DNA of 64,000 bases, from positions 22,595-86,594 of the forward strand of contig CBFGRV010000006.1 of the NCBI GenBank assembly GCA_965651265.1, given 5' to 3'. This DNA comes from an uncultured Rhodothermales bacterium (GTDB lineage Bacteria; Bacteroidota; Rhodothermia; Rhodothermales; VXPQ01). Positions 26,718 to 33,474 of this stretch are shown piece by piece. The notes beneath the pieces were generated by a model. It saw nothing but the letters and a program-made list of their open reading frames with translations. It was not told the DNA's origin and did no database searches. The position numbers and the translations under genes are program-made. Within the stretch, counting starts at the first letter, position 1; the number at the start of each line of letters is the position of its first letter.

Positions 26718-27518
26718 ATGATTCACAAACAGTTTCGTATGAACGGAATCCCTGAGCGTCCCGCGAAGCCGCGGGATTTCGGACTCACGTTGATGCTCGA
26801 TAAGGGTTTGGCTCCGCGCCAGGTGGAGGACGTGCTGGACGTAGCGTCCGAGTACGTGGATCTCGTCAAGATGGGATGGGGAACGGCCGCCATCACGCCG
26901 AGCCTCGAGCGCAAGCTCGAGATCTACCGCAGCGCCGATGTGCCCGTCTATTTCGGCGGTACGCTCTTCGAGGCCTACTTCTTGCGCGATCAACTCGATG
27001 ACTACAAGCGGCTCCTCTCCGCGCTGCGCGTCGAGCATGTCGAGATCTCCGACGGCACGCTGCTCATCCCCCACGACGAGAAGCTGCGCTGCATCGAGTC
27101 GTTCGGGCGAGAATTTACGGTGCTCAGCGAGGTCGGCTCGAAAGACAACGAGCGGATCATGCCTCCCTACCGATGGGTTCGCGCCATCGAGGCCGAGCTG
27201 GAAGCGGGTAGTTGGAAGGTCATCTGCGAGGCACGCGAAAGCGGCACGGCCGGGCTCTACCGGCCGAACGGCGAGGTGCGCTCCGGCCTGGTGGAGGAGA
27301 TCGCCGACCTCATCGATCAGAATCGCATCATCTTCGAGGCGCCCAAGAAGGCCCAGCAGGTCTGGTTCATCCAGCAGCTGGGCACGAACGTAAACCTCGG
27401 CAACATCAGCCCCGAAGAAATCCTTCCGCTGGAAACACTGCGGCTGGGGCTGCGCTCGGACACCATGTTCGAATTCTTCTCGCATCCGAGCATTTTGACG
27501 ATCCATCACGAGGAGTAG
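26718..27518 (+). CDS. comA: Phosphosulfolactate synthase (ComA family)
   Basis: PRDFGLTLMLDKG, VKMGWGT, FGGTLFE, EISDG, SEVGSK, EARESG, FEAP, VNLGNI, ETLRLGLRSDT. Confidence 0.9.
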   Translation: MIHKQFRMNGIPERPAKPRDFGLTLMLDKGLAPRQVEDVLDVASEYVDLVKMGWGTAAITPSLERKLEIYRSADVPVYFGGTLFEAYFLRDQLDDYKRLLSALRVEHVEISDGTLLIPHDEKLRCIESFGREFTVLSEVGSKDNERIMPPYRWVRAIEAELEAGSWKVICEARESGTAGLYRPNGEVRSGLVEEIADLIDQNRIIFEAPKKAQQVWFIQQLGTNVNLGNISPEEILPLETLRLGLRSDTMFEFFSHPSILTIHHEE

Positions 27519-27652
27519 GCACCCTCGCCGTGGAGCGGCCTCCATCGTGAATTGAAGAAACAAATCATCTGAGGCCGTCTTTAAGCGTCCGGTCGCCGCA
27601 GCCTCCTGCCGGCACGCGGCCGGCTGTCCCCCACAACATCGACGAAAGAACT

Positions 27653-27889
27653 ATGTCACGGAAAGACGACCTCACGGGTCGGGGGCCGAGGACCGGCAAC
27701 CACGTTTCGCACGCCAACAACAAGGCGAAGCGCCGGTTCAGCGTCAATCTCCAGAAGAAGCGTTTCTATATTCCCGAGCAGGATCGCTGGGTGACGCTGA
27801 AGGTCTCCACGAAGACCCTGAAGACTATCAATAAGAACGGAATCCAGGCGGTGATCGATGAGGCGAGGCGCCAGGGCGTGCGCGTCTGA
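27653..27889 (+). CDS. rpmB: 50S ribosomal protein L28
   Basis: TGNHVSHANNKAKRRFSVNLQ. Confidence 0.95.
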   Translation: MSRKDDLTGRGPRTGNHVSHANNKAKRRFSVNLQKKRFYIPEQDRWVTLKVSTKTLKTINKNGIQAVIDEARRQGVRV

Positions 27890-27950
27890 CCACTCGTCCG
27901 TCTGACGTCAAATTATCGCCGCCCGCCGCCACGAATCGCGGAATTGAGTC

Positions 27951-28121
27951 ATGGCTAAAGCAAAAGGAAACCGCATCCAGATCACGCTCGAGTGCACGGA
28001 GGCGCCCGGTACGTCACGCTACACGACGACGAAGAACCGCCGCAACACCACCGAGCGCGTCGAGCTCAAGAAATACAATCCGGTACTGCGCAAGCATACG
28101 ATTCACCGGGAGATCAAGTAA
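27951..28121 (+). CDS. rpmG: 50S ribosomal protein L33 (no CxxC pairs)
   Basis: Manual translation [56 protein letters not shown]; 56 aa, below the ORF-track cutoff. Confidence 0.95.
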
Positions 28122-28123
28122 CG

Positions 28124-28300
28124 ATGGCAAAGAAGCAGACATTCGGCGACAAGGTCCGGAGACAGCGCGGCGCGGGCCGGCAGATGGCCAAGATCGTGTC
28201 CGCAGAGAAGAAGCCGAACGGCCAGTACCGCTTCAAGCAGAAGATGGTGCTCGCGGAGGATGTCGCCGCAGAGATCAAGGCGGCGAAAGAGGGGCTGTAG
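28124..28300 (+). CDS. Small basic protein, DUF4295/bL38-like
   Basis: MAKKQTFGDKVRRQRGAGRQMAKIVSAEKKPNGQYRFKQKMV..., 58 aa, starts 2 nt after the rpmG stop; position and the AKIV...G.Y.FK pattern match DUF4295. Confidence 0.7.
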   Translation: MAKKQTFGDKVRRQRGAGRQMAKIVSAEKKPNGQYRFKQKMVLAEDVAAEIKAAKEGL

Positions 28301-28312
28301 ACAGGCGTTATT

Positions 28313-28386
28313 CGGGGCGTGGCGCAGTCCGGTAGCGCATCTGCTTTGGGAGCAGAGGGTCGTCGGTTCAAATCCGGCCGCCCCGA
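28313..28386 (+). tRNA. tRNA-Pro(TGG), CCA not encoded
   Basis: Acceptor CGGGGCG/CGCCCCG, anticodon arm TCTGC-TTTGGGA-GCAGA, T-loop GTTCAAATCC. Confidence 0.96.
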
Positions 28387-28484
28387 CACGTAAGGGCCCG
28401 GGCACTGCGGCGACGGGCGATGAATGCGGCACGTTTCGGAGGGCCAGCCCGAATCCAGGCACACGGCTGCTCGATGTCCGCCAG

Positions 28485-28558
28485 GCGCCCGTAGCTCAAC
28501 TGGATAGAGCAGCGGACTTCTAATCCGCAGGTTGCAGGTTCGAGTCCTGCCGGGCGCG
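28485..28558 (+). tRNA. tRNA-Arg(TCT), CCA not encoded
   Basis: Acceptor GCGCCCG/CGGGCGC, anticodon arm GCGGA-CTTCTAA-TCCGC, GTTCGAGTCC. Confidence 0.96.
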
Positions 28559-28687
28559 CCCTCTTCCCTCCTGGCGCGCCCGCATCGATCCTTCTCTGCT
28601 CCGCGACACTGCGAACTCCATCCTCTCTTGTCCCGGGTCTTCTGGCCGCGGTTCGGGCAATAGGCGAGCCCTCCCGCCGTTTATCAC

Positions 28688-28716
28688 TTGCCGCGGCATC
28701 CTCTCCGGGGTATATT
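28688..28716 (+). promoter_or_regulatory. Sigma70-like promoter for the four-gene module
   Basis: TTGCCG (28688-28693), 17-nt spacer, TATATT (28711-28716). Confidence 0.5.
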
Positions 28717-28793
28717 CCAATCGGCTTGACGTGTTGGCGCCGCTTTTCTCAGCAGGCCGCGGCACGCTTCGTCGAACACCTCTCTGCCGACCG

Positions 28794-29381
28794 ATGCATC
28801 ACCCTCAAACAGCAACCGCCGGCGTGGTGGCTCGCCCGACGAGCCTCATGGAACGGCTCAATACGATCTGGCACGAGCGTGCGCTGCAGATCTTCATGGC
28901 GATCGTACTGGCGCACTGGGCTGAACACCTGGTCCAGGCCTATCAGATTTACGCGTTGAAGATGCCCCTGCCCGAAGCGCGCGGCTTGCTGGGGTACTGG
29001 TATCCGTGGTTGGTGGCGTCGGAGACCCTCCACTACGGCTATGCGCTGGTCATGGTCGTCGTGCTGTGGGTACTTCGGACGGGGTTCACCGGCCGATCCT
29101 ACACGTGGTGGATGGTGGCATTCGGCATCCAGTTCTGGCACCACATAGAGCACGCGCTGCTGCAGGCCCAGGTGCTGATCGGAATGAACCTGATGAATGC
29201 GCCTGTGCCGATTAGCATCCTCCAGATATGGATTCGCCGGCCCGAGCTGCACCTGATCTACAATGCGGCAGTATTCTTCCCGATGATCGTGGCGATGTAC
29301 TACCACCTGTTCCCGTCGCCCGAAGAGGAGTCACAGATGCAGTGCAGTTGTGCGATTCGTCCCCGAGCCGCGATGGCGTAG
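28794..29381 (+). CDS. His-rich integral membrane protein with duplicated HxxEH / E(x)LH motifs (DUF6008-like, tentative)
   Basis: About four hydrophobic helices; HWAEH...ETLHY and HHIEH...ELHL; C-terminal CSC; start set at ATG 28794. Confidence 0.7.
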   Translation: MHHPQTATAGVVARPTSLMERLNTIWHERALQIFMAIVLAHWAEHLVQAYQIYALKMPLPEARGLLGYWYPWLVASETLHYGYALVMVVVLWVLRTGFTGRSYTWWMVAFGIQFWHHIEHALLQAQVLIGMNLMNAPVPISILQIWIRRPELHLIYNAAVFFPMIVAMYYHLFPSPEEESQMQCSCAIRPRAAMA

Positions 29382-29778
29382 TACGCGCGCCGGCGCGCGT
29401 CGTGCGCTTCTCCCTTTTACGCTTCTCCTGCTCGCATTTGGAGTCGGCTGCGGAGCGAATGAATCGGCGGACAACGTAGCGGTTGACTGGGAGGTCGCTC
29501 CCGATCCACCCTCGGTGGGACCCGTCGTCGTCGCCGTGGGGTTATCCGGTGTGGACGGGCAGCCGATTCGCGGTGCCTCCGTTCGGCTGGAGGCCACCAT
29601 GACCCATCCCGGGATGGCACCGGCCATTGCGGCGGCCGAGGAAACGGCGCCGGGGCGGTACGAGGCCGGGCTGAGCCTCTCCATGGCCGGCGACTGGCTG
29701 TTGATCGTCCAGGCCGAACTGCCGGATGGCCGGATTCTGCAGCGGCAACACGATTTGCGAGGTGTGTCCGCGCCCTGA
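29350..29778 (+). CDS. YtkA/FixH-like lipoprotein
   Basis: Lipobox-like FGVGC; LEATMTHPGMAP, PGRYEA, MAGDWLLIV pattern of YtkA-like Ig-fold domains. Confidence 0.75.
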   Translation: MRFVPEPRWRSTRAGARRALLPFTLLLLAFGVGCGANESADNVAVDWEVAPDPPSVGPVVVAVGLSGVDGQPIRGASVRLEATMTHPGMAPAIAAAEETAPGRYEAGLSLSMAGDWLLIVQAELPDGRILQRQHDLRGVSAP

Positions 29779-29806
29779 TGGTCGATTCGGTGAAGCGTGA
29801 CGGGAA

Positions 29807-31300
29807 TTGCGCGGTTTGATGCAGAGCCTCCCCATCATAGGCGACGAAACGGCCGTTCAGACGCGCGGTCGAACGAGGGGCTTCGACGTGCTCGAGCTGC
29901 CCGTTGTGGGGGCCTTCCTCAAGTGGCACGGCTCGCGCCGCACGATGCAGGCCGTGATGCTCGTCGTTGCCGTGGTGATGATCGTGCATGGCTTCCTCGG
30001 GCCGCAACTCGCCCCGCGGAATCTGGCGACCCTGCTCACCTGGGTGCACTACCGCGGGCTCCTGGTGCTCGCGCTCCTCGTGGCGGGGAATCTCTTCTGC
30101 ATGGCGTGTCCGTTCATCCTGGTGCGGGACCTCGCCCGCCGGTTCGCCAGGCCCGTTCTGCACTGGCCGGCGCGGCTGCGGTCGAAGTGGCTCGCCGTTG
30201 GGCTATTCGTGGCCGTGCTTTTCTCGTACGAATACTTCGACCTCTGGGGCTCGCCACTGTGGACGGCCTGGCTGATCGTGGCCTACTTCGCGGCCGCCCT
30301 CCTCATCGACTCCTTCTTTACGAACGCTTCCTTCTGCAAGTATGTCTGCCCCGTCGGGCAGTTCAATTTCGTGGGATCGACGGTTTCGCCTCTGGAGGTC
30401 TCCGTGCGCGATCACGACGTGTGCGCCTCGTGTACCACACTCGACTGCATCAAGGGTACGCGAGCGGCGCACGAGCCGTCGCTCGTTCTACAACGAGGGT
30501 GCGAGCTCGCGCTCTTCCAGCCGAAGAAGGAGGGCAACATGGACTGCACCTTCTGCCTGGATTGCGTGTACGCGTGCCCGCACGACAATATCGGCATTCA
30601 CGCGCGGCTGCCGGGCAGCGAACTCTTCGGGGATCCACGCCGGTCCGGGGTGGGCCGGTTCTCGCGGCGGCCGGATCTGGCGGCGCTCGCCCTGCTCTTC
30701 ACGTTCGGCGCCCTCCTGAATGCTTTCGGGATGGTGAGCCCGGTCTACGCCGTGCAGGAGTGGCTCGCCGGGCTGCTGGGGACGACCTCTGAGTTGCCCG
30801 TCCTCGCCACACTGTTCGCCGTCGCCCTCGTCGTCGAGCCCGCCGTCCTGATCGGCGGTGCCGCCTACGCCACGAAACTCGCGACGGGAACGTCCGACCG
30901 GCTGGCCGGGATCGTCGTGCGCTTCGCCTACGCGCTCATCCCGCTCGGCTTTGGCATCTGGCTCTCGCATTACAGCTTCCATTTTCTGACCGGCATCTGG
31001 ACGGTCGTCCCCGTCATCCAACAAATGCTGCTGGACGCGAGCATCACCGTCTTTGGATTACCGGCCTGGCATCTCACGGGCGTCCCGCAGGAGCTCGTGC
31101 TTCCACTCGAGCTCGGATTTCTCGGCCTGGGCGCCGTGGGAACGCTGCTGACGGCCTACCGTATCGCCGAGCGCGAATATCCGGAGCAAGCCGCCAGGGC
31201 TTTCGTGCCGTGGGCCATTTTGAGCCTGATGCTCCTCGCCGCCGCCGTCTGGTTGCTCTATCAGCCCATGGAAATGCGCGGGACGTTTCTGGGCAGCTGA
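29807..31300 (+). CDS. Membrane polyferredoxin (NapH/FixG/RdxA-like 4Fe-4S binding protein)
   Basis: FCMACP, FCKYVCP, CASCTTLDC...GC, CTFCLDCVYACP; many TM helices. Confidence 0.85.
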   Translation: MRGLMQSLPIIGDETAVQTRGRTRGFDVLELPVVGAFLKWHGSRRTMQAVMLVVAVVMIVHGFLGPQLAPRNLATLLTWVHYRGLLVLALLVAGNLFCMACPFILVRDLARRFARPVLHWPARLRSKWLAVGLFVAVLFSYEYFDLWGSPLWTAWLIVAYFAAALLIDSFFTNASFCKYVCPVGQFNFVGSTVSPLEVSVRDHDVCASCTTLDCIKGTRAAHEPSLVLQRGCELALFQPKKEGNMDCTFCLDCVYACPHDNIGIHARLPGSELFGDPRRSGVGRFSRRPDLAALALLFTFGALLNAFGMVSPVYAVQEWLAGLLGTTSELPVLATLFAVALVVEPAVLIGGAAYATKLATGTSDRLAGIVVRFAYALIPLGFGIWLSHYSFHFLTGIWTVVPVIQQMLLDASITVFGLPAWHLTGVPQELVLPLELGFLGLGAVGTLLTAYRIAEREYPEQAARAFVPWAILSLMLLAAAVWLLYQPMEMRGTFLGS

Positions 31301-31347
31301 TCGGCCTCGTGATTCTGGCCGTTGATTCTTACAGGCACCTACTACTC

Positions 31348-31887
31348 ATGACGAATCGCACGAGCTCGCGGAAAGGCCGTCTTGCCGGCACGATCGCCGT
31401 GCTTCTCCTCGTGCCGTTCCTGCAGGCGCACGAAGGGCCGCCCTTCCCCATCGTGGTCGACCACGAGATCGGGCCCATGCTCGTTTCCGTGTGGACGGAC
31501 CCCGACATCGGCATCGGCACCTTCTTCGTCGTCTTTGAGGCCGCCGGCGATGCCGTCCTCCCCGACGATCTCGCCGTCCAGATCGGTATCCGGCCGGTAT
31601 CGGGCCGGCTCGAGGAGGTGCTGTACCGCGCGGAGCCGCAGCGCGTGCGGAAGGGCGCGCGCTTTTTCACGGAGGTGGAATTCGATCAGGGAGAATGGTG
31701 GGATGTCCGCGTTATCGTGGAGAGCTCGGCGGGCAGCGGTGAGATCCACTCACAGGTCGAGGCGACGCCCGACGGCACCCTGGGACCCATCAGTCTGGTC
31801 ATCTTTCTCCTGCCCTTCCTGGCCGTCGGTTTTCTCTGGTTCAAGGCGGTGATGCGAAAGCGCCGGATGAGCGCGGAATCCGCATAG
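31348..31887 (+). CDS. Exported, C-terminally membrane-anchored protein with predicted mature N-terminal His
   Basis: Signal peptide ...LLLVPFLQA|HEGPPFPI; C-terminal TM helix plus basic tail; start set at ATG 31348. Confidence 0.65.
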   Translation: MTNRTSSRKGRLAGTIAVLLLVPFLQAHEGPPFPIVVDHEIGPMLVSVWTDPDIGIGTFFVVFEAAGDAVLPDDLAVQIGIRPVSGRLEEVLYRAEPQRVRKGARFFTEVEFDQGEWWDVRVIVESSAGSGEIHSQVEATPDGTLGPISLVIFLLPFLAVGFLWFKAVMRKRRMSAESA

Positions 31888-32041
31888 CGAAGAGCAACAA
31901 TCCTGTGAGTCGCGCGGACGTTGCAATTCAGAAGGCACCGCGGCATCCCGCCCAAGTTGAGCTGAGGTAGGGCGGCAGGGCTGGCCTGGTCCCGGGCTAT
32001 GTCGCTATCCCCAAGATGCTTCACCAGATACGTGTACTGCC

Positions 32042-32449
32042 ATGATGAATCGGTACTTCTATCGTGTGATGCCCCTCGTGACGCTCGCCGTCTCGGCCGC
32101 ACTCGCCCTTCAGCTTTCGGGATGTCTCGCAGCAGGTGCTGCCGCGGGTGCGGCGGTGGGCGGCTGCGCGCTCCTCGATCGGAATGAAGACCAGCGTGTC
32201 ACCGCCGCCGAGTTGTCCGACGGCCTCTTCGACGCGTGGGATGCAAATGACGATAACGAACTTTCCCGGCCGGAATTCCAGGAAGGCGTGTCCACCAGCC
32301 CGCGCTACCAGAGCTGGTCGGTCGAGTTCGGAAATTGGGATTCGAATGCCGACGATATGCTCGCGCGCTCGGAATTCCGTTCCGGCGTGGGCGGCAGCCC
32401 CGATACGGCGGAGTGGCTGGACGATCAGTGCGACGACCTGGGCCTGTAG
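32042..32449 (+). CDS. EF-hand-like lipoprotein
   Basis: Lipobox-like LSGC; three loops DRNEDQRVTAAE, DANDDNELSRPE, DSNADDMLARSE. Confidence 0.7.
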   Translation: MMNRYFYRVMPLVTLAVSAALALQLSGCLAAGAAAGAAVGGCALLDRNEDQRVTAAELSDGLFDAWDANDDNELSRPEFQEGVSTSPRYQSWSVEFGNWDSNADDMLARSEFRSGVGGSPDTAEWLDDQCDDLGL

Positions 32450-32737
32450 ACCCACACTACAGATAGTTTCGGCATTACGGATTCTGGATCCGCCGGCCAG
32501 AACCCCGTGCCGGCAGGGCTACCGTCGACAGGCATGGCGGCGGCAGACGCCGTGTGCCGGTGGAACTCCTGTGAATCACCCCGGAGTCCTGCGTGAATCG
32601 TGAACCTCGCGGCCGGTAAGCGGTAAGAGTCGTCCTCGCGCAGGGGTGGAGCGGCTGCCCGCATCGGGGCCGGTTTCGGGGAACCGATTTGTGGACGTGG
32701 GACGAGCCTCCGTCGAACCCTCGCGCAACCTACCGAA

Positions 32738-32808
32738 GGTGACGTGGCCGAGGGGTTAGGCAAAGGTCTGCAAAACCTTGTACGGCGGTTCGAATCCGCC
32801 CGTCACCT
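32738..32808 (+). tRNA. tRNA-Cys(GCA), CCA not encoded
   Basis: Acceptor GGTGACG/CGTCACC, anticodon arm AAGGT-CTGCAAA-ACCTT, GTTCGAATCC. Confidence 0.95.
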
Positions 32809-32837
32809 CAACAGGGGAGCGCCTTCGGGCTATGAAT

Positions 32838-32880
32838 AAGCCTCATCCGACGAGCTTCGCGGGTGGGGCTTCATATTTTT
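32838..32880 (+). terminator. Intrinsic terminator-like hairpin after tRNA-Cys
   Basis: AAGCCTCATCCG ... CGGGTGGGGCTT stem (with G-U pairs) followed by CATATTTTT. Confidence 0.55.
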
Positions 32881-32895
32881 CGCCGTCTTAGAAAG

Positions 32896-33474
32896 TCACT
32901 CCTCCCGGCGGAGGCGGATCAGGTCCACCAGGATGCCGTGGTTGTCGCGGCCGAAGTGCCTCAGGCGAATCCGTGCCTCGGTCGGCTCCGGCACGCCAAA
33001 ATCACGCGTGTAAAGCCTGAACTTCTCATTGGCTTCGAGAATGAAGCGTTCCGAAAACGCGGTCCCGATGGTCACGTCCATCGTGTCGGTGGGCCGCCCA
33101 CGGTTGTTGCCGGCCAGCCACACCTCGAACAGATAGGTCTCGCCCGGCTCCAGCAGGTAAACTTCCTTGCTCTCGATCGTGCCGGCCCTATTGCAGGTGC
33201 CGTCCATGTCGATGTAGATCCCGTTGCCTGGCTGGACGTCGAAATGTCCGTTTCCATGCAGGTCGATGCAGCCGTCCACTAAGTTGTATTGCTCCAGGTC
33301 GGTCCAGTTGTTCTGACCGACTCCTCCGTTCTCGTTGTCGAAATCGCTCACGATCAGGATCGTCGCCGGATCGGCGGGCGGGAGCTCGATGCCGACGACC
33401 TTTTCTTTACAGGCCCCCAGTGCGAGAAACGGAAGCAGGAGGAGCGCGATGAGAAATGTCCAGGAGCTTCGCAT
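32896..33474 (-). CDS. Hypothetical lipoprotein with jelly-roll/carbohydrate-binding-like domain
   Basis: Lipobox-like ALGAC; IDLHGNGHFDVQPGNGIYIDMDG resembles DUF642-like beta-sandwich domains; start set at ATG 33474. Confidence 0.55.
   Translation of the reverse strand: MRSSWTFLIALLLLPFLALGACKEKVVGIELPPADPATILIVSDFDNENGGVGQNNWTDLEQYNLVDGCIDLHGNGHFDVQPGNGIYIDMDGTCNRAGTIESKEVYLLEPGETYLFEVWLAGNNRGRPTDTMDVTIGTAFSERFILEANEKFRLYTRDFGVPEPTEARIRLRHFGRDNHGILVDLIRLRREE

Follow-up and report, generated by a model that had tools for sequence, protein, structure and literature searches.

A recurrent gene cassette around an unnamed His/Glu membrane protein family, with a possible role in copper capture and hand-over

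Copper acquisition and hand-over in bacteria are poorly understood, and the few importers that have been characterized, CcoA and YcnJ/CopD, are recent discoveries. Here we describe a cassette of four apparently co-transcribed envelope genes, g1–g4, in a 64,000-nt stretch of DNA from an uncultured Rhodothermales bacterium (contig CBFGRV010000006.1, positions 22,595–86,594; hereafter the window), and compare it with the systems that it most resembles. In Bacillus subtilis, YcnJ is a CopC–CopD–YtkA fusion that depends on an extracellular site for Cu(II) as well as on a second site in its membrane domain, and the anchored Cu(II) protein YcnI exchanges Cu(II) with it (PMC13344008, PMC12362106). The one specific bacterial cupric reductase known, CcoG, uses two [4Fe-4S] clusters (PMC7558416). 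YcnJ and YcnI, taken together with a CcoG-like reductase, come closest to the cassette in logic.

Like YcnJ and YcnI, the cassette appears to comprise an extracytoplasmic beta-sandwich with an N-terminal His for Cu(II), a second metal site within a membrane protein, a YtkA domain, and a further protein that is anchored and begins with His, and in both systems the domains are at times fused. It differs in that g1 is not CopD (four helices and a His/Glu cluster, as against the eight helices of CopD), that g4 is neither CopC nor DUF1775 and that a polyferredoxin, g3, is added. This polyferredoxin shares with CcoG its place in the membrane, two CxxxCP motifs, two cytoplasmic [4Fe-4S] clusters and an adjoining Ig-fold protein of FixH/CcoH-like type. 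Unlike CcoG, it does not match the family model TIGR02745, which is absent from its NCBIfam matches at E ≤ 1, and it carries a six-helix C-terminal domain in place of the periplasmic FixG_C domain; further, and in contrast to ccoGHIS, the cassette has no CcoI or CcoS and the window's genome no cbb3 oxidase.

Because this parts list equals that of YcnJ and YcnI with a CcoG-class polyferredoxin added, we propose a copper route and read the cassette as an inner-membrane module for copper capture, reduction and hand-over, a reading to which we give a probability of roughly 45%. What we infer is which metal is handled, that it is reduced and which way it is passed on; gene content, conservation, co-occurrence, topology, similarities of fold and family, a natural fusion and the dispensability of g2 and g3 are the observations set out below.

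A colinear cassette in many phyla

The original prediction described four overlapping or closely spaced genes on one strand after tRNA-Arg, which correspond to the plus-strand open reading frames (ORFs) g1–g4 at 28,796–31,887 (Table 1). When one genome was taken for each species, at least 579 genomes proved to contain a relative of g1, and we fetched 80 loci. By record title, 41 of these belong to Acidobacteriota (13 of them Thermoanaerobaculia), 13 to Gemmatimonadota, 12 to Planctomycetota and 5 to Balneolaceae; the remainder are single loci from Rhodothermales, Armatimonadota, Nitrospinota and Verrucomicrobiota and 5 that are unclassified or doubtfully labelled. The cassette recurs in at least 8 bacterial phyla, its cultured carriers include Fodinibius salicampi and Engelhardtia mirabilis, and its proteins occur in their thousands in soil, compost and rhizosphere metagenomes. 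The window's own strain was found in compost, soil, rhizosphere and fertiliser metagenomes.

Seventy loci from other species, with enough downstream DNA, were informative for gene order. They comprise 43 with g1-g2-g3-g4, 13 with g1-g3-g4, 6 with g1-g4 and 8 with g1 alone, all colinear, and median identities to the window proteins are 66% for g1, 60% for g3, 47% for g4 and 43% for g2. The genes on either side vary between loci; the comparison of neighbourhoods across phyla that had been suggested as a check thus found the genes together as a self-contained unit whose neighbours change. That their adjacency is a matter of chance or annotation, with no functional unit behind it, is hardly credible. 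The promoter-like match upstream, which is no better than chance, would suit such a view, but the order is kept far beyond chance in 62 of the 70 loci across many phyla, homologues of each protein run to hundreds or thousands, and the recurring order refutes it.

The idea of a four-gene unit stood as regards conserved order and was overstated as regards content, g2 being missing from 13 of the 56 loci that hold g3 and g4, and g3 from 13 genomes with g1. Because g2 and g3 are missing in some g1 carriers, g1 and g4 form the core of the cassette and g2 and g3 are accessories. Solitary g1 genes in Terriglobia are second copies, since all five genomes concerned hold g3 elsewhere and two of the loci (L063 and L080) share one genome. 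Each of these copies is preceded by a gene for an outer-membrane channel of the Alginate_exp type (~500 aa), and a channel gene lies upstream of g1 at seven Terriglobia and Bryobacteraceae loci (L052, L066, L067, L069, L077, L080 and L083).

The four proteins and their possible functions

Homologues of g1 are 193–204 aa long, in agreement with the 194-aa product of the upstream ATG; the called product starts at 28,848, and residue numbers count from the Met at that position. The motifs HWAEH, SETLH, HHIEH and PELH, on which g1 had been described as a His/Glu-motif membrane protein, were all found, together with a terminal CSC. The outer half carries H23xxE26H27, E59xxH62, H98xxE101H102 and E133xH135, with Gln, Tyr and Asn nearby, helix 4 carries P145-M146xxxM150-Y-x-H153, and the tail carries C166xC168. 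In 20 homologues from different phyla, 66–79% identical to the window's g1, the invariant positions include H23-W-A-E26-H27, Q30, Q33, S58-E59-x-L-H62-Y63, Q95-F-W-H98-H99-x-E101-H102, Q106, Q108, E133-L-H135, Y138-N139, P145-M146, H153, C166 and C168. Among 50 divergent family members, H98, E101, Q108, H135 and Y138 are invariant and H23, E26, H27, Q30, Q33, E59, H62, H102, E133 and N139 nearly so. M146xxxM150, H153 and the CxC are limited to the cassette subfamily, and the core is kept in distant relatives without this Met/Cys track.

More than 3,900 homologues of g1 were found, 60–71% identical across phyla, and all the named ones are called 'hypothetical'; a profile search of 1.84 billion representatives returned 611 clusters. 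g1 has no match in Pfam or NCBIfam and no sequence match in PDB with either a narrow (A1) or a broad (A4) profile. Its AlphaFold2 (AF2) model, with a predicted local distance difference test score (pLDDT) of 82, has four long helices, and Foldseek found no fold match for it in PDB (best E 3.6, template modelling score (TM) < 0.4). In Pfam, g1 matches neither FTR1 (PF03239, which has RExxE motifs where g1 has HxxEH) nor Ctr, nor CopD at E ≤ 1. In a search of the genome that admitted hits up to E 10, DUF6008 gave no match to g1; a distant relative, P0358, scores 21.7 bits for it, below the gathering score of 27 bits, so that DUF6008 appears to be a remote lead only, to another uncharacterized family. 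By these comparisons g1 and g4 are both without a family in Pfam or NCBIfam, and the g1 family itself is new.

The topology of a natural fusion, P0275, and positive-inside charge counts agree, and g1 is therefore predicted to have a cytoplasmic N-terminus and to hold its His/Glu cluster towards the periplasm, in the membrane's outer half. A heme-binding cytochrome b was dropped as a candidate for g1 because all conserved His residues lie on one side of the membrane, and an inverzincin-type HxxEH protease because it leaves the copper and redox partners unexplained. In two distant g1 relatives, P0298 and P0387, a C-terminal peptidase-type domain with HExxH (M48-like) is fused to g1.

The same features admit a doubtful but serious alternative, in which g1 is itself an integral-membrane metalloenzyme or redox protein of a new kind, and six His and four Glu form a binuclear copper or iron centre that faces the periplasm. 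Its g2 and g4 would be metallochaperones, g3 the electron donor and CRTAC1/UnbV propellers possible periplasmic partners or substrate holders. Conservation of g1 is at the level of an enzyme (median identity 66% across phyla), its core is invariant or nearly so across the 50 divergent members, only the cassette subfamily has the Met/Cys track, some genomes contain g1 by itself and the g1 fold has no counterpart in PDB. Accessory sets of a chaperone and a polyferredoxin are, moreover, typical of metalloenzyme maturation, NosL and NosR for NosZ being an example. CRTAC1-like proteins with TPR, FG-GAP and UnbV_ASPIC domains (1,000–1,200 aa, same strand) are encoded within 6 kb of the cassette in 23 of the 80 loci, directly after g4 in 13 (L042, L048, L050, L054, L056, L057, L063, L067, L068, L072, L075, L078 and L082), and one g1::FG-GAP/UnbV propeller fusion was found.

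Other observations tell against an enzyme. UnbV_ASPIC occurs in 39 of 41 relatives in the window's order and g1 in 5 of 41, and because the one is near-universal and the other rare, no dependence between them can be inferred; the 13 UnbV_ASPIC matches of the window's genome all lie on other contigs, none beside the cassette. No substrate can be named, and transport is a better fit for the linkage to a porin and for the Ctr1-like MxxxM/H/CxC track. An internal duplication, which would build a dimetal site with symmetry, escapes statistical detection (none by BLASTP of the two halves; hhalign E 0.27), although the motifs align in register. Also unlikely, in our judgement, though still deserving attention, is the wider proposal that g1 founds a new class of membrane binuclear (Cu or Fe) metalloproteins, for which the cassette would be metal-loading and electron-supply machinery, with g2 and g4 as Ig-fold chaperones bearing hard and soft sites and g3 as the polyferredoxin. 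The substrate of such an enzyme may be periplasmic or a lipid, and propellers of the CRTAC1/UnbV type may act with it.

g4 has the features predicted for it, a signal peptide, a first mature His and a C-terminal helix as anchor. The signal peptide is kept in all 20 homologues aligned: positions −3 and −1 hold small residues, and because this −3/−1 pattern precedes an invariant H-E/Q-G-P-P-F the mature protein is predicted to start with His. D38, W49, D51, D53, E90, D113 and W118 are likewise invariant in the 20 homologues. None of these sequences, g4 included, has a Pfam match at E ≤ 0.1, whether to P19 (Iron_transport), CopC, YcnI/DUF1775 or any other family; for CopC and YcnI/DUF1775, g4 gives none up to E 1 either. 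In the AF2 model (pLDDT 89), a beta-sandwich is followed by a transmembrane helix. Its top PDB folds by Foldseek are FetP, P19, FtrA, Tp34 and HftA, then CrdA and DUF4426, with E values of 2e-5 to 6e-4, TM 0.43–0.68 and 8–17% identity overall; for P19, FetP and FtrA the figures are E 2e-5, probability 1.0, TM 0.45–0.58, root-mean-square deviation ~5 Å and identity 8–14%. On the model, the likeness to P19 would be one of Ig-like sandwiches, not proof of common descent.

These folds bear on a second alternative, which we consider quite unlikely: uptake of iron or another hard metal on the FtrABCD or FetMP plan, with copper in g2 serving only as a cofactor. g4 would be the P19/FtrA part, g1 a permease replacing the Ftr1-type one, and g3 a polyferredoxin like FtrD, acting as electron sink or source. 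The five best structural matches of g4 (E 2e-5 to 3e-4, TM ~0.5–0.58) fit this plan, as do its conserved ligands, which are carboxylates and one His, and a genome without an FTR1 permease. The modularity is also familiar, since a polyferredoxin belongs to FtrABCD and not to FetMP. In common with FtrABCD, FetMP and cFtr1–P19, the cassette joins a periplasmic protein, here one whose model resembles P19, to a partner in the membrane; a NapH-like polyferredoxin and a second small periplasmic copper protein may or may not accompany them. However, g4 does not match the P19 family in Pfam, nor g1 FTR1; g4 is membrane-anchored, lacks the His/Met copper site of P19 and is only 8–14% identical to P19-family structures; and g2 is a YtkA-like copper protein of the CrdA/CtaK type, not an FtrB-like cupredoxin. 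Across 78 loci, the Fur-box-like sites that precede g1 do not surpass those of shuffled sequence, and the cassette thus shows no Fur signal.

g2 had been called a YtkA/FixH-like lipoprotein with MTHPGM. The YtkA half of this holds (Pfam PF13115, E 5.2e-11, with 43.5 bits where the gathering score is 25.9), as do MTHPGM and the lipobox, whose Cys is at least 95% conserved; the FixH half is weak (PF05751, 17.4 bits, below the gathering score of 23). In profile comparisons, g2 matches CrdA of Helicobacter pylori (9ll2, E 1.9e-6) and, weakly, CcoH. Its candidate site reads M84-x-H86-x-G-M89-x-P ... M112-G-D-W116, in which M84, H86, M89, M112 and W116 are invariant in 16 sequences and the wider set M84, H86, G88, M89, P91, M112, G114, D115 and W116 invariant or nearly so. 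Met/His/Met/Met/Trp would fit a soft ligand set of the Cu(I) type. With CrdA and with CtaK of Bacillus, g2 shares membership of the YtkA family, a Met/His-rich site and lipoprotein anchoring. The difference lies in the partners: CrdA works with an efflux system and CtaK in caa3 assembly, whereas g2 stands with g1, g3 and g4. A relation between g2 and g4 shows in fold only and could not be demonstrated by sequence (hhalign E 0.064, probability 0.9%).

g3 contains exactly 12 Cys, as stated in the original prediction of a membrane polyferredoxin: two CxxxCP motifs plus eight ferredoxin-type Cys in two [4Fe-4S]-type motifs. The motifs FCMACP, FCKYVCP, CxxCxxxxC...C and CxxCxxCxxxCP are all at least 95% conserved in 59 homologues. 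As a multi-helix membrane protein with two CxxxCP motifs at helix ends and two 4Fe-4S motifs, g3 belongs to the broad NapH/FixG class, with NapH and CcoG. Specific models score far below their cut-offs (NapH/MauN TIGR02163, 39.1 bits against 213, E 5.8e-10; NF007013, 33.4 against 234; NosR NF046105, 19.4 against 1000), and the Pfam matches to Fer4_5 and Fer4_7 are weak. To judge by hydropathy and charge, the N-terminus is cytoplasmic, as are both CxxxCP motifs and the Fe-S domain, and in the extra C-terminal domain M308, H388 and H392 are conserved at the periplasmic face. Source records name homologues ferredoxin, polyferredoxin or 4Fe-4S binding protein and, in a few NCBI records, 'FesM'. 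Cyanobacterial FesM, as cited in PMC9003380, is likewise a membrane Fe-S protein of the polyferredoxin class, but no NCBIfam model links g3 to it.

A third alternative is that the cassette holds displaced fixGH/ccoGH-like or nos-like assembly factors for a respiratory enzyme encoded elsewhere. It would draw on the weak matches of g2 to FixH and CcoH and of g3 to the NapH and NosR models, and CtaK/YtkA acts in CuA assembly (PMC13344008). We hold it to be very unlikely. In the 97% complete genome, TIGR02745 (CcoG/FixG) matches nothing at E ≤ 0.001, g3 included, and no cbb3 oxidase above cut-off was found, the best CcoN score being 40.5 bits against a cut-off of 583. As had been noted, no oxidase, reductase or Cu-ATPase gene is adjacent; the neighbours include no oxidase, reductase, P-type ATPase, CcoI or CcoS, and no NapG- or NapA-like ORF and no NosZ lies near the cassette. 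g1 is present in only 5 of 41 relatives, yet heme-copper oxidases are general in such aerobes, and g1, the most conserved gene, would be left unexplained.

A possible copper route

If the cassette handles copper, g4, whose C-terminal helix would hold it to the inner membrane on the outer side, would capture Cu(II) with its N-terminal His and nearby carboxylates and dock on g1. The four-helix bundle of g1 would keep the metal in a His6/Glu4 cluster buried in its outer half. g3 would carry cytoplasmic electrons through its two [4Fe-4S] clusters and two CxxxCP motifs and, like CcoG, reduce Cu(II) to Cu(I). Preferring soft ligands, Cu(I) would then move inward along M146xxxM150/H153 of g1 to the cytoplasmic C166xC168. 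Alternatively, it would pass to the Met/His/Trp site of periplasmic g2, from which copper enzymes of the membrane or periplasm, aa3-type oxidases for example, would receive it. Eukaryotic Ctr1 with Fre or Steap offers an analogy only: there too uptake is coupled to reduction, with MxxxM in a transmembrane helix and a Cys/His motif in the cytoplasmic tail, but Ctr1 is not homologous to g1, the number of helices differs and the reductase here would use Fe-S rather than heme or flavin.

Several lines of evidence favour this route. First, the colinear order is conserved across groups while the neighbours change. Second, g2 is, by sequence, a member of the YtkA family and a homologue of the copper-resistance protein CrdA. 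Third, the g4 model is closest to the Cu/Fe-binding proteins P19, FetP, FtrA and HftA, and to CrdA.

Fourth, two natural fusions appear to tie g1 to metal-binding parts. In P0275, a g4-like domain (signal peptide, A/H-G-G with the slash at the cleavage site, ...VWT.P..., hhalign E 1.9e-5) is followed by one helix and g1; because it joins both in one protein, P0275 points to direct contact between g4 and g1. In P0281, the g1 domain is fused to a Cys-rich metal domain that is YHS/TRASH-like.

Fifth, g3 can be placed by its motifs in the NapH/CcoG class of polyferredoxins. Sixth, by analogy, copper import in B. subtilis appears to use the same parts list, and porin linkage, as seen for the second g1 copies in Terriglobia, would be expected of an uptake route. 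Seventh, there is no Fur-box signal upstream of g1. The copper link made in the original prediction thus stands at the level of homology (g2 with CrdA and YtkA, and the P19/FetP/FtrA-like model of g4).

Other points weigh against this reading. The best fold matches of g4 are proteins of iron-uptake systems, and g4 has no conserved Met, Cys or second His, so that its ligands would suit iron or another hard metal too. All redox groups of g3 are predicted to face the cytoplasm, which makes the electron route to an outer-leaflet site a conjecture. In the 13 genomes that lack g3 altogether, mostly Gemmatimonadota, g1 occurs with or without a g4-like gene, and reduction by g3 therefore cannot be obligatory; in some Gemmatimonadota, tblastn finds no g4 near g1. 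The place of g2 in an inward pathway is hard to see. The identity of g1 and its invariant His/Glu/Gln/Tyr/Asn core suggest a site for catalysis or a cofactor rather than a permease. Finally, three compost runs labelled transcriptomic show flat, DNA-like depth along the contig and give no usable expression data.

Insertion site, upstream elements and implications

Five plus-strand genes lie between tRNA-Arg and tRNA-Cys, the first four being g1–g4 (Table 1). Upstream are ComA, rpmB, rpmG, a DUF4295 gene and tRNAs; downstream, after the EF-hand lipoprotein and tRNA-Cys, are a lipoprotein of unknown function and a cyclase/AAA/TPR protein. No homologue of the EF-hand gene was found beside the cassette in 80 other loci, and the Rfam search for riboswitches or other RNA elements returned tRNAs only.

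Table 1. Positions of the cassette genes and surrounding features in the window
Feature	Position	Strand	Remarks
tRNA-Arg(TCT)	28485..28560	+	ARAGORN, Rfam; left border of the cassette-bearing insertion
Insertion segment, 4177 bp	28561..32737		g1–g4 and one EF-hand lipoprotein gene; missing at the syntenic site of relatives
TTGCCG-N17-TATATT, promoter-like	28688..28716	+
g1, predicted four-helix inner-membrane protein	28796..29381	+	194 aa from ATG 28796; 177 aa from 28848
g2, YtkA/CrdA-type periplasmic lipoprotein (predicted)	29350..29778	+	32-nt overlap with g1; Pfam YtkA
g3, ~10-helix membrane polyferredoxin (predicted)	29819 (or 29807)..31300	+	N- and C-terminus inside
g4, exported beta-sandwich with C-terminal membrane anchor (predicted)	31348..31887	+	Cleavable signal peptide ...LQA/HEGPPFP (slash, cleavage site)
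EF-hand lipoprotein gene	32042..32449	+	Outside the conserved cassette; Pfam EF-hand_6, E 5.6e-6
tRNA-Cys(GCA)	32738..32809	+	ARAGORN, Rfam; right border of the insertion
Predicted lipoprotein, 221 aa	32896-33561	-	No Pfam match

The rpmB-rpmG-DUF4295 arrangement (27,653–28,300) is kept in all relatives examined and, taken with the abundance of UnbV/FG-GAP genes, suggests a lineage of the Bacteroidota/Rhodothermota type. Five of these relatives, from the same family or order (L098–L102), read rpmB-rpmG-DUF4295-tRNA-Pro-tRNA-Arg-tRNA-Cys, with the last two tRNA genes 55–90 nt apart; because the syntenic site is empty in all five, the 4,177 bp of the window are an insertion. One of the five has g1 elsewhere. 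No att-like direct repeats were found at the borders. In runs X1 and X5, compared with 27,500–33,000 of the window, metagenome contigs link tRNA-Arg directly to tRNA-Cys with ~14 other letters between them and probably come from related organisms without the insertion. The cassette is patchy among relatives, g1 being present in 5 of 41 in the order, and its proteins are only ~70% identical even within the family. Our best explanation takes the cassette to be horizontally mobile and self-contained.

The promoter-like element reported upstream of g1 is present and is the sole sigma-70-like match in 28,400–32,800; shuffled sequence gives 0.6 ± 0.8 matches, so that the element alone is not beyond chance and counts as weak evidence. 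A 10-bp palindrome, TGCCGCGGCA, at 28,689–28,698 overlaps its −35-like hexamer and is repeated 66 nt downstream at 28,755–28,764; the two copies could be an operator pair or a chance occurrence in GC-rich DNA. Elsewhere, TTGACC followed by TGTGATCGTGATCACA, a CRP/FNR-type TGTGA-N6-TCACA site, stands upstream of g1 in Terriglobia, with TGTGATCGTGATCACA ~120–145 nt before g1 at seven loci (L063, L067, L069, L077, L078, L080 and L083), preceding both the full cassette and the porin-linked second copy of g1. In Thermoanaerobaculia, an 8-4-8 palindrome, ATCTTAGG-CGCA-CCTAAGAT, lies ~110 nt before g1 (L012, L017, L020, L022 and L029). Judged from their sequences, these sites show dedicated, lineage-specific control and do not name the signal.

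In line with the original prediction, no described pathway matches the cassette: fixGHIS, napGH, nos and FtrABCD were each tried and rejected on family membership. The searched literature contained no description of the cassette, no paper combining YtkA with a polyferredoxin or UnbV/ASPIC with copper, and no mention of DUF6008. The type of system, periplasmic metallochaperones with a membrane metal protein and a polyferredoxin, would be a known one, and what appears new is the g1 family at its centre, a protein conserved at the level of respiratory enzymes yet without name, domain family or structural relative. If the cassette takes up and reduces copper, Acidobacteriota, Gemmatimonadota, Planctomycetota and Balneolales would have in it their main route of this kind, and cupric reductases of the CcoG type would gain a second context. 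If instead g1 is an enzyme, it would represent a new class of membrane metalloenzymes.

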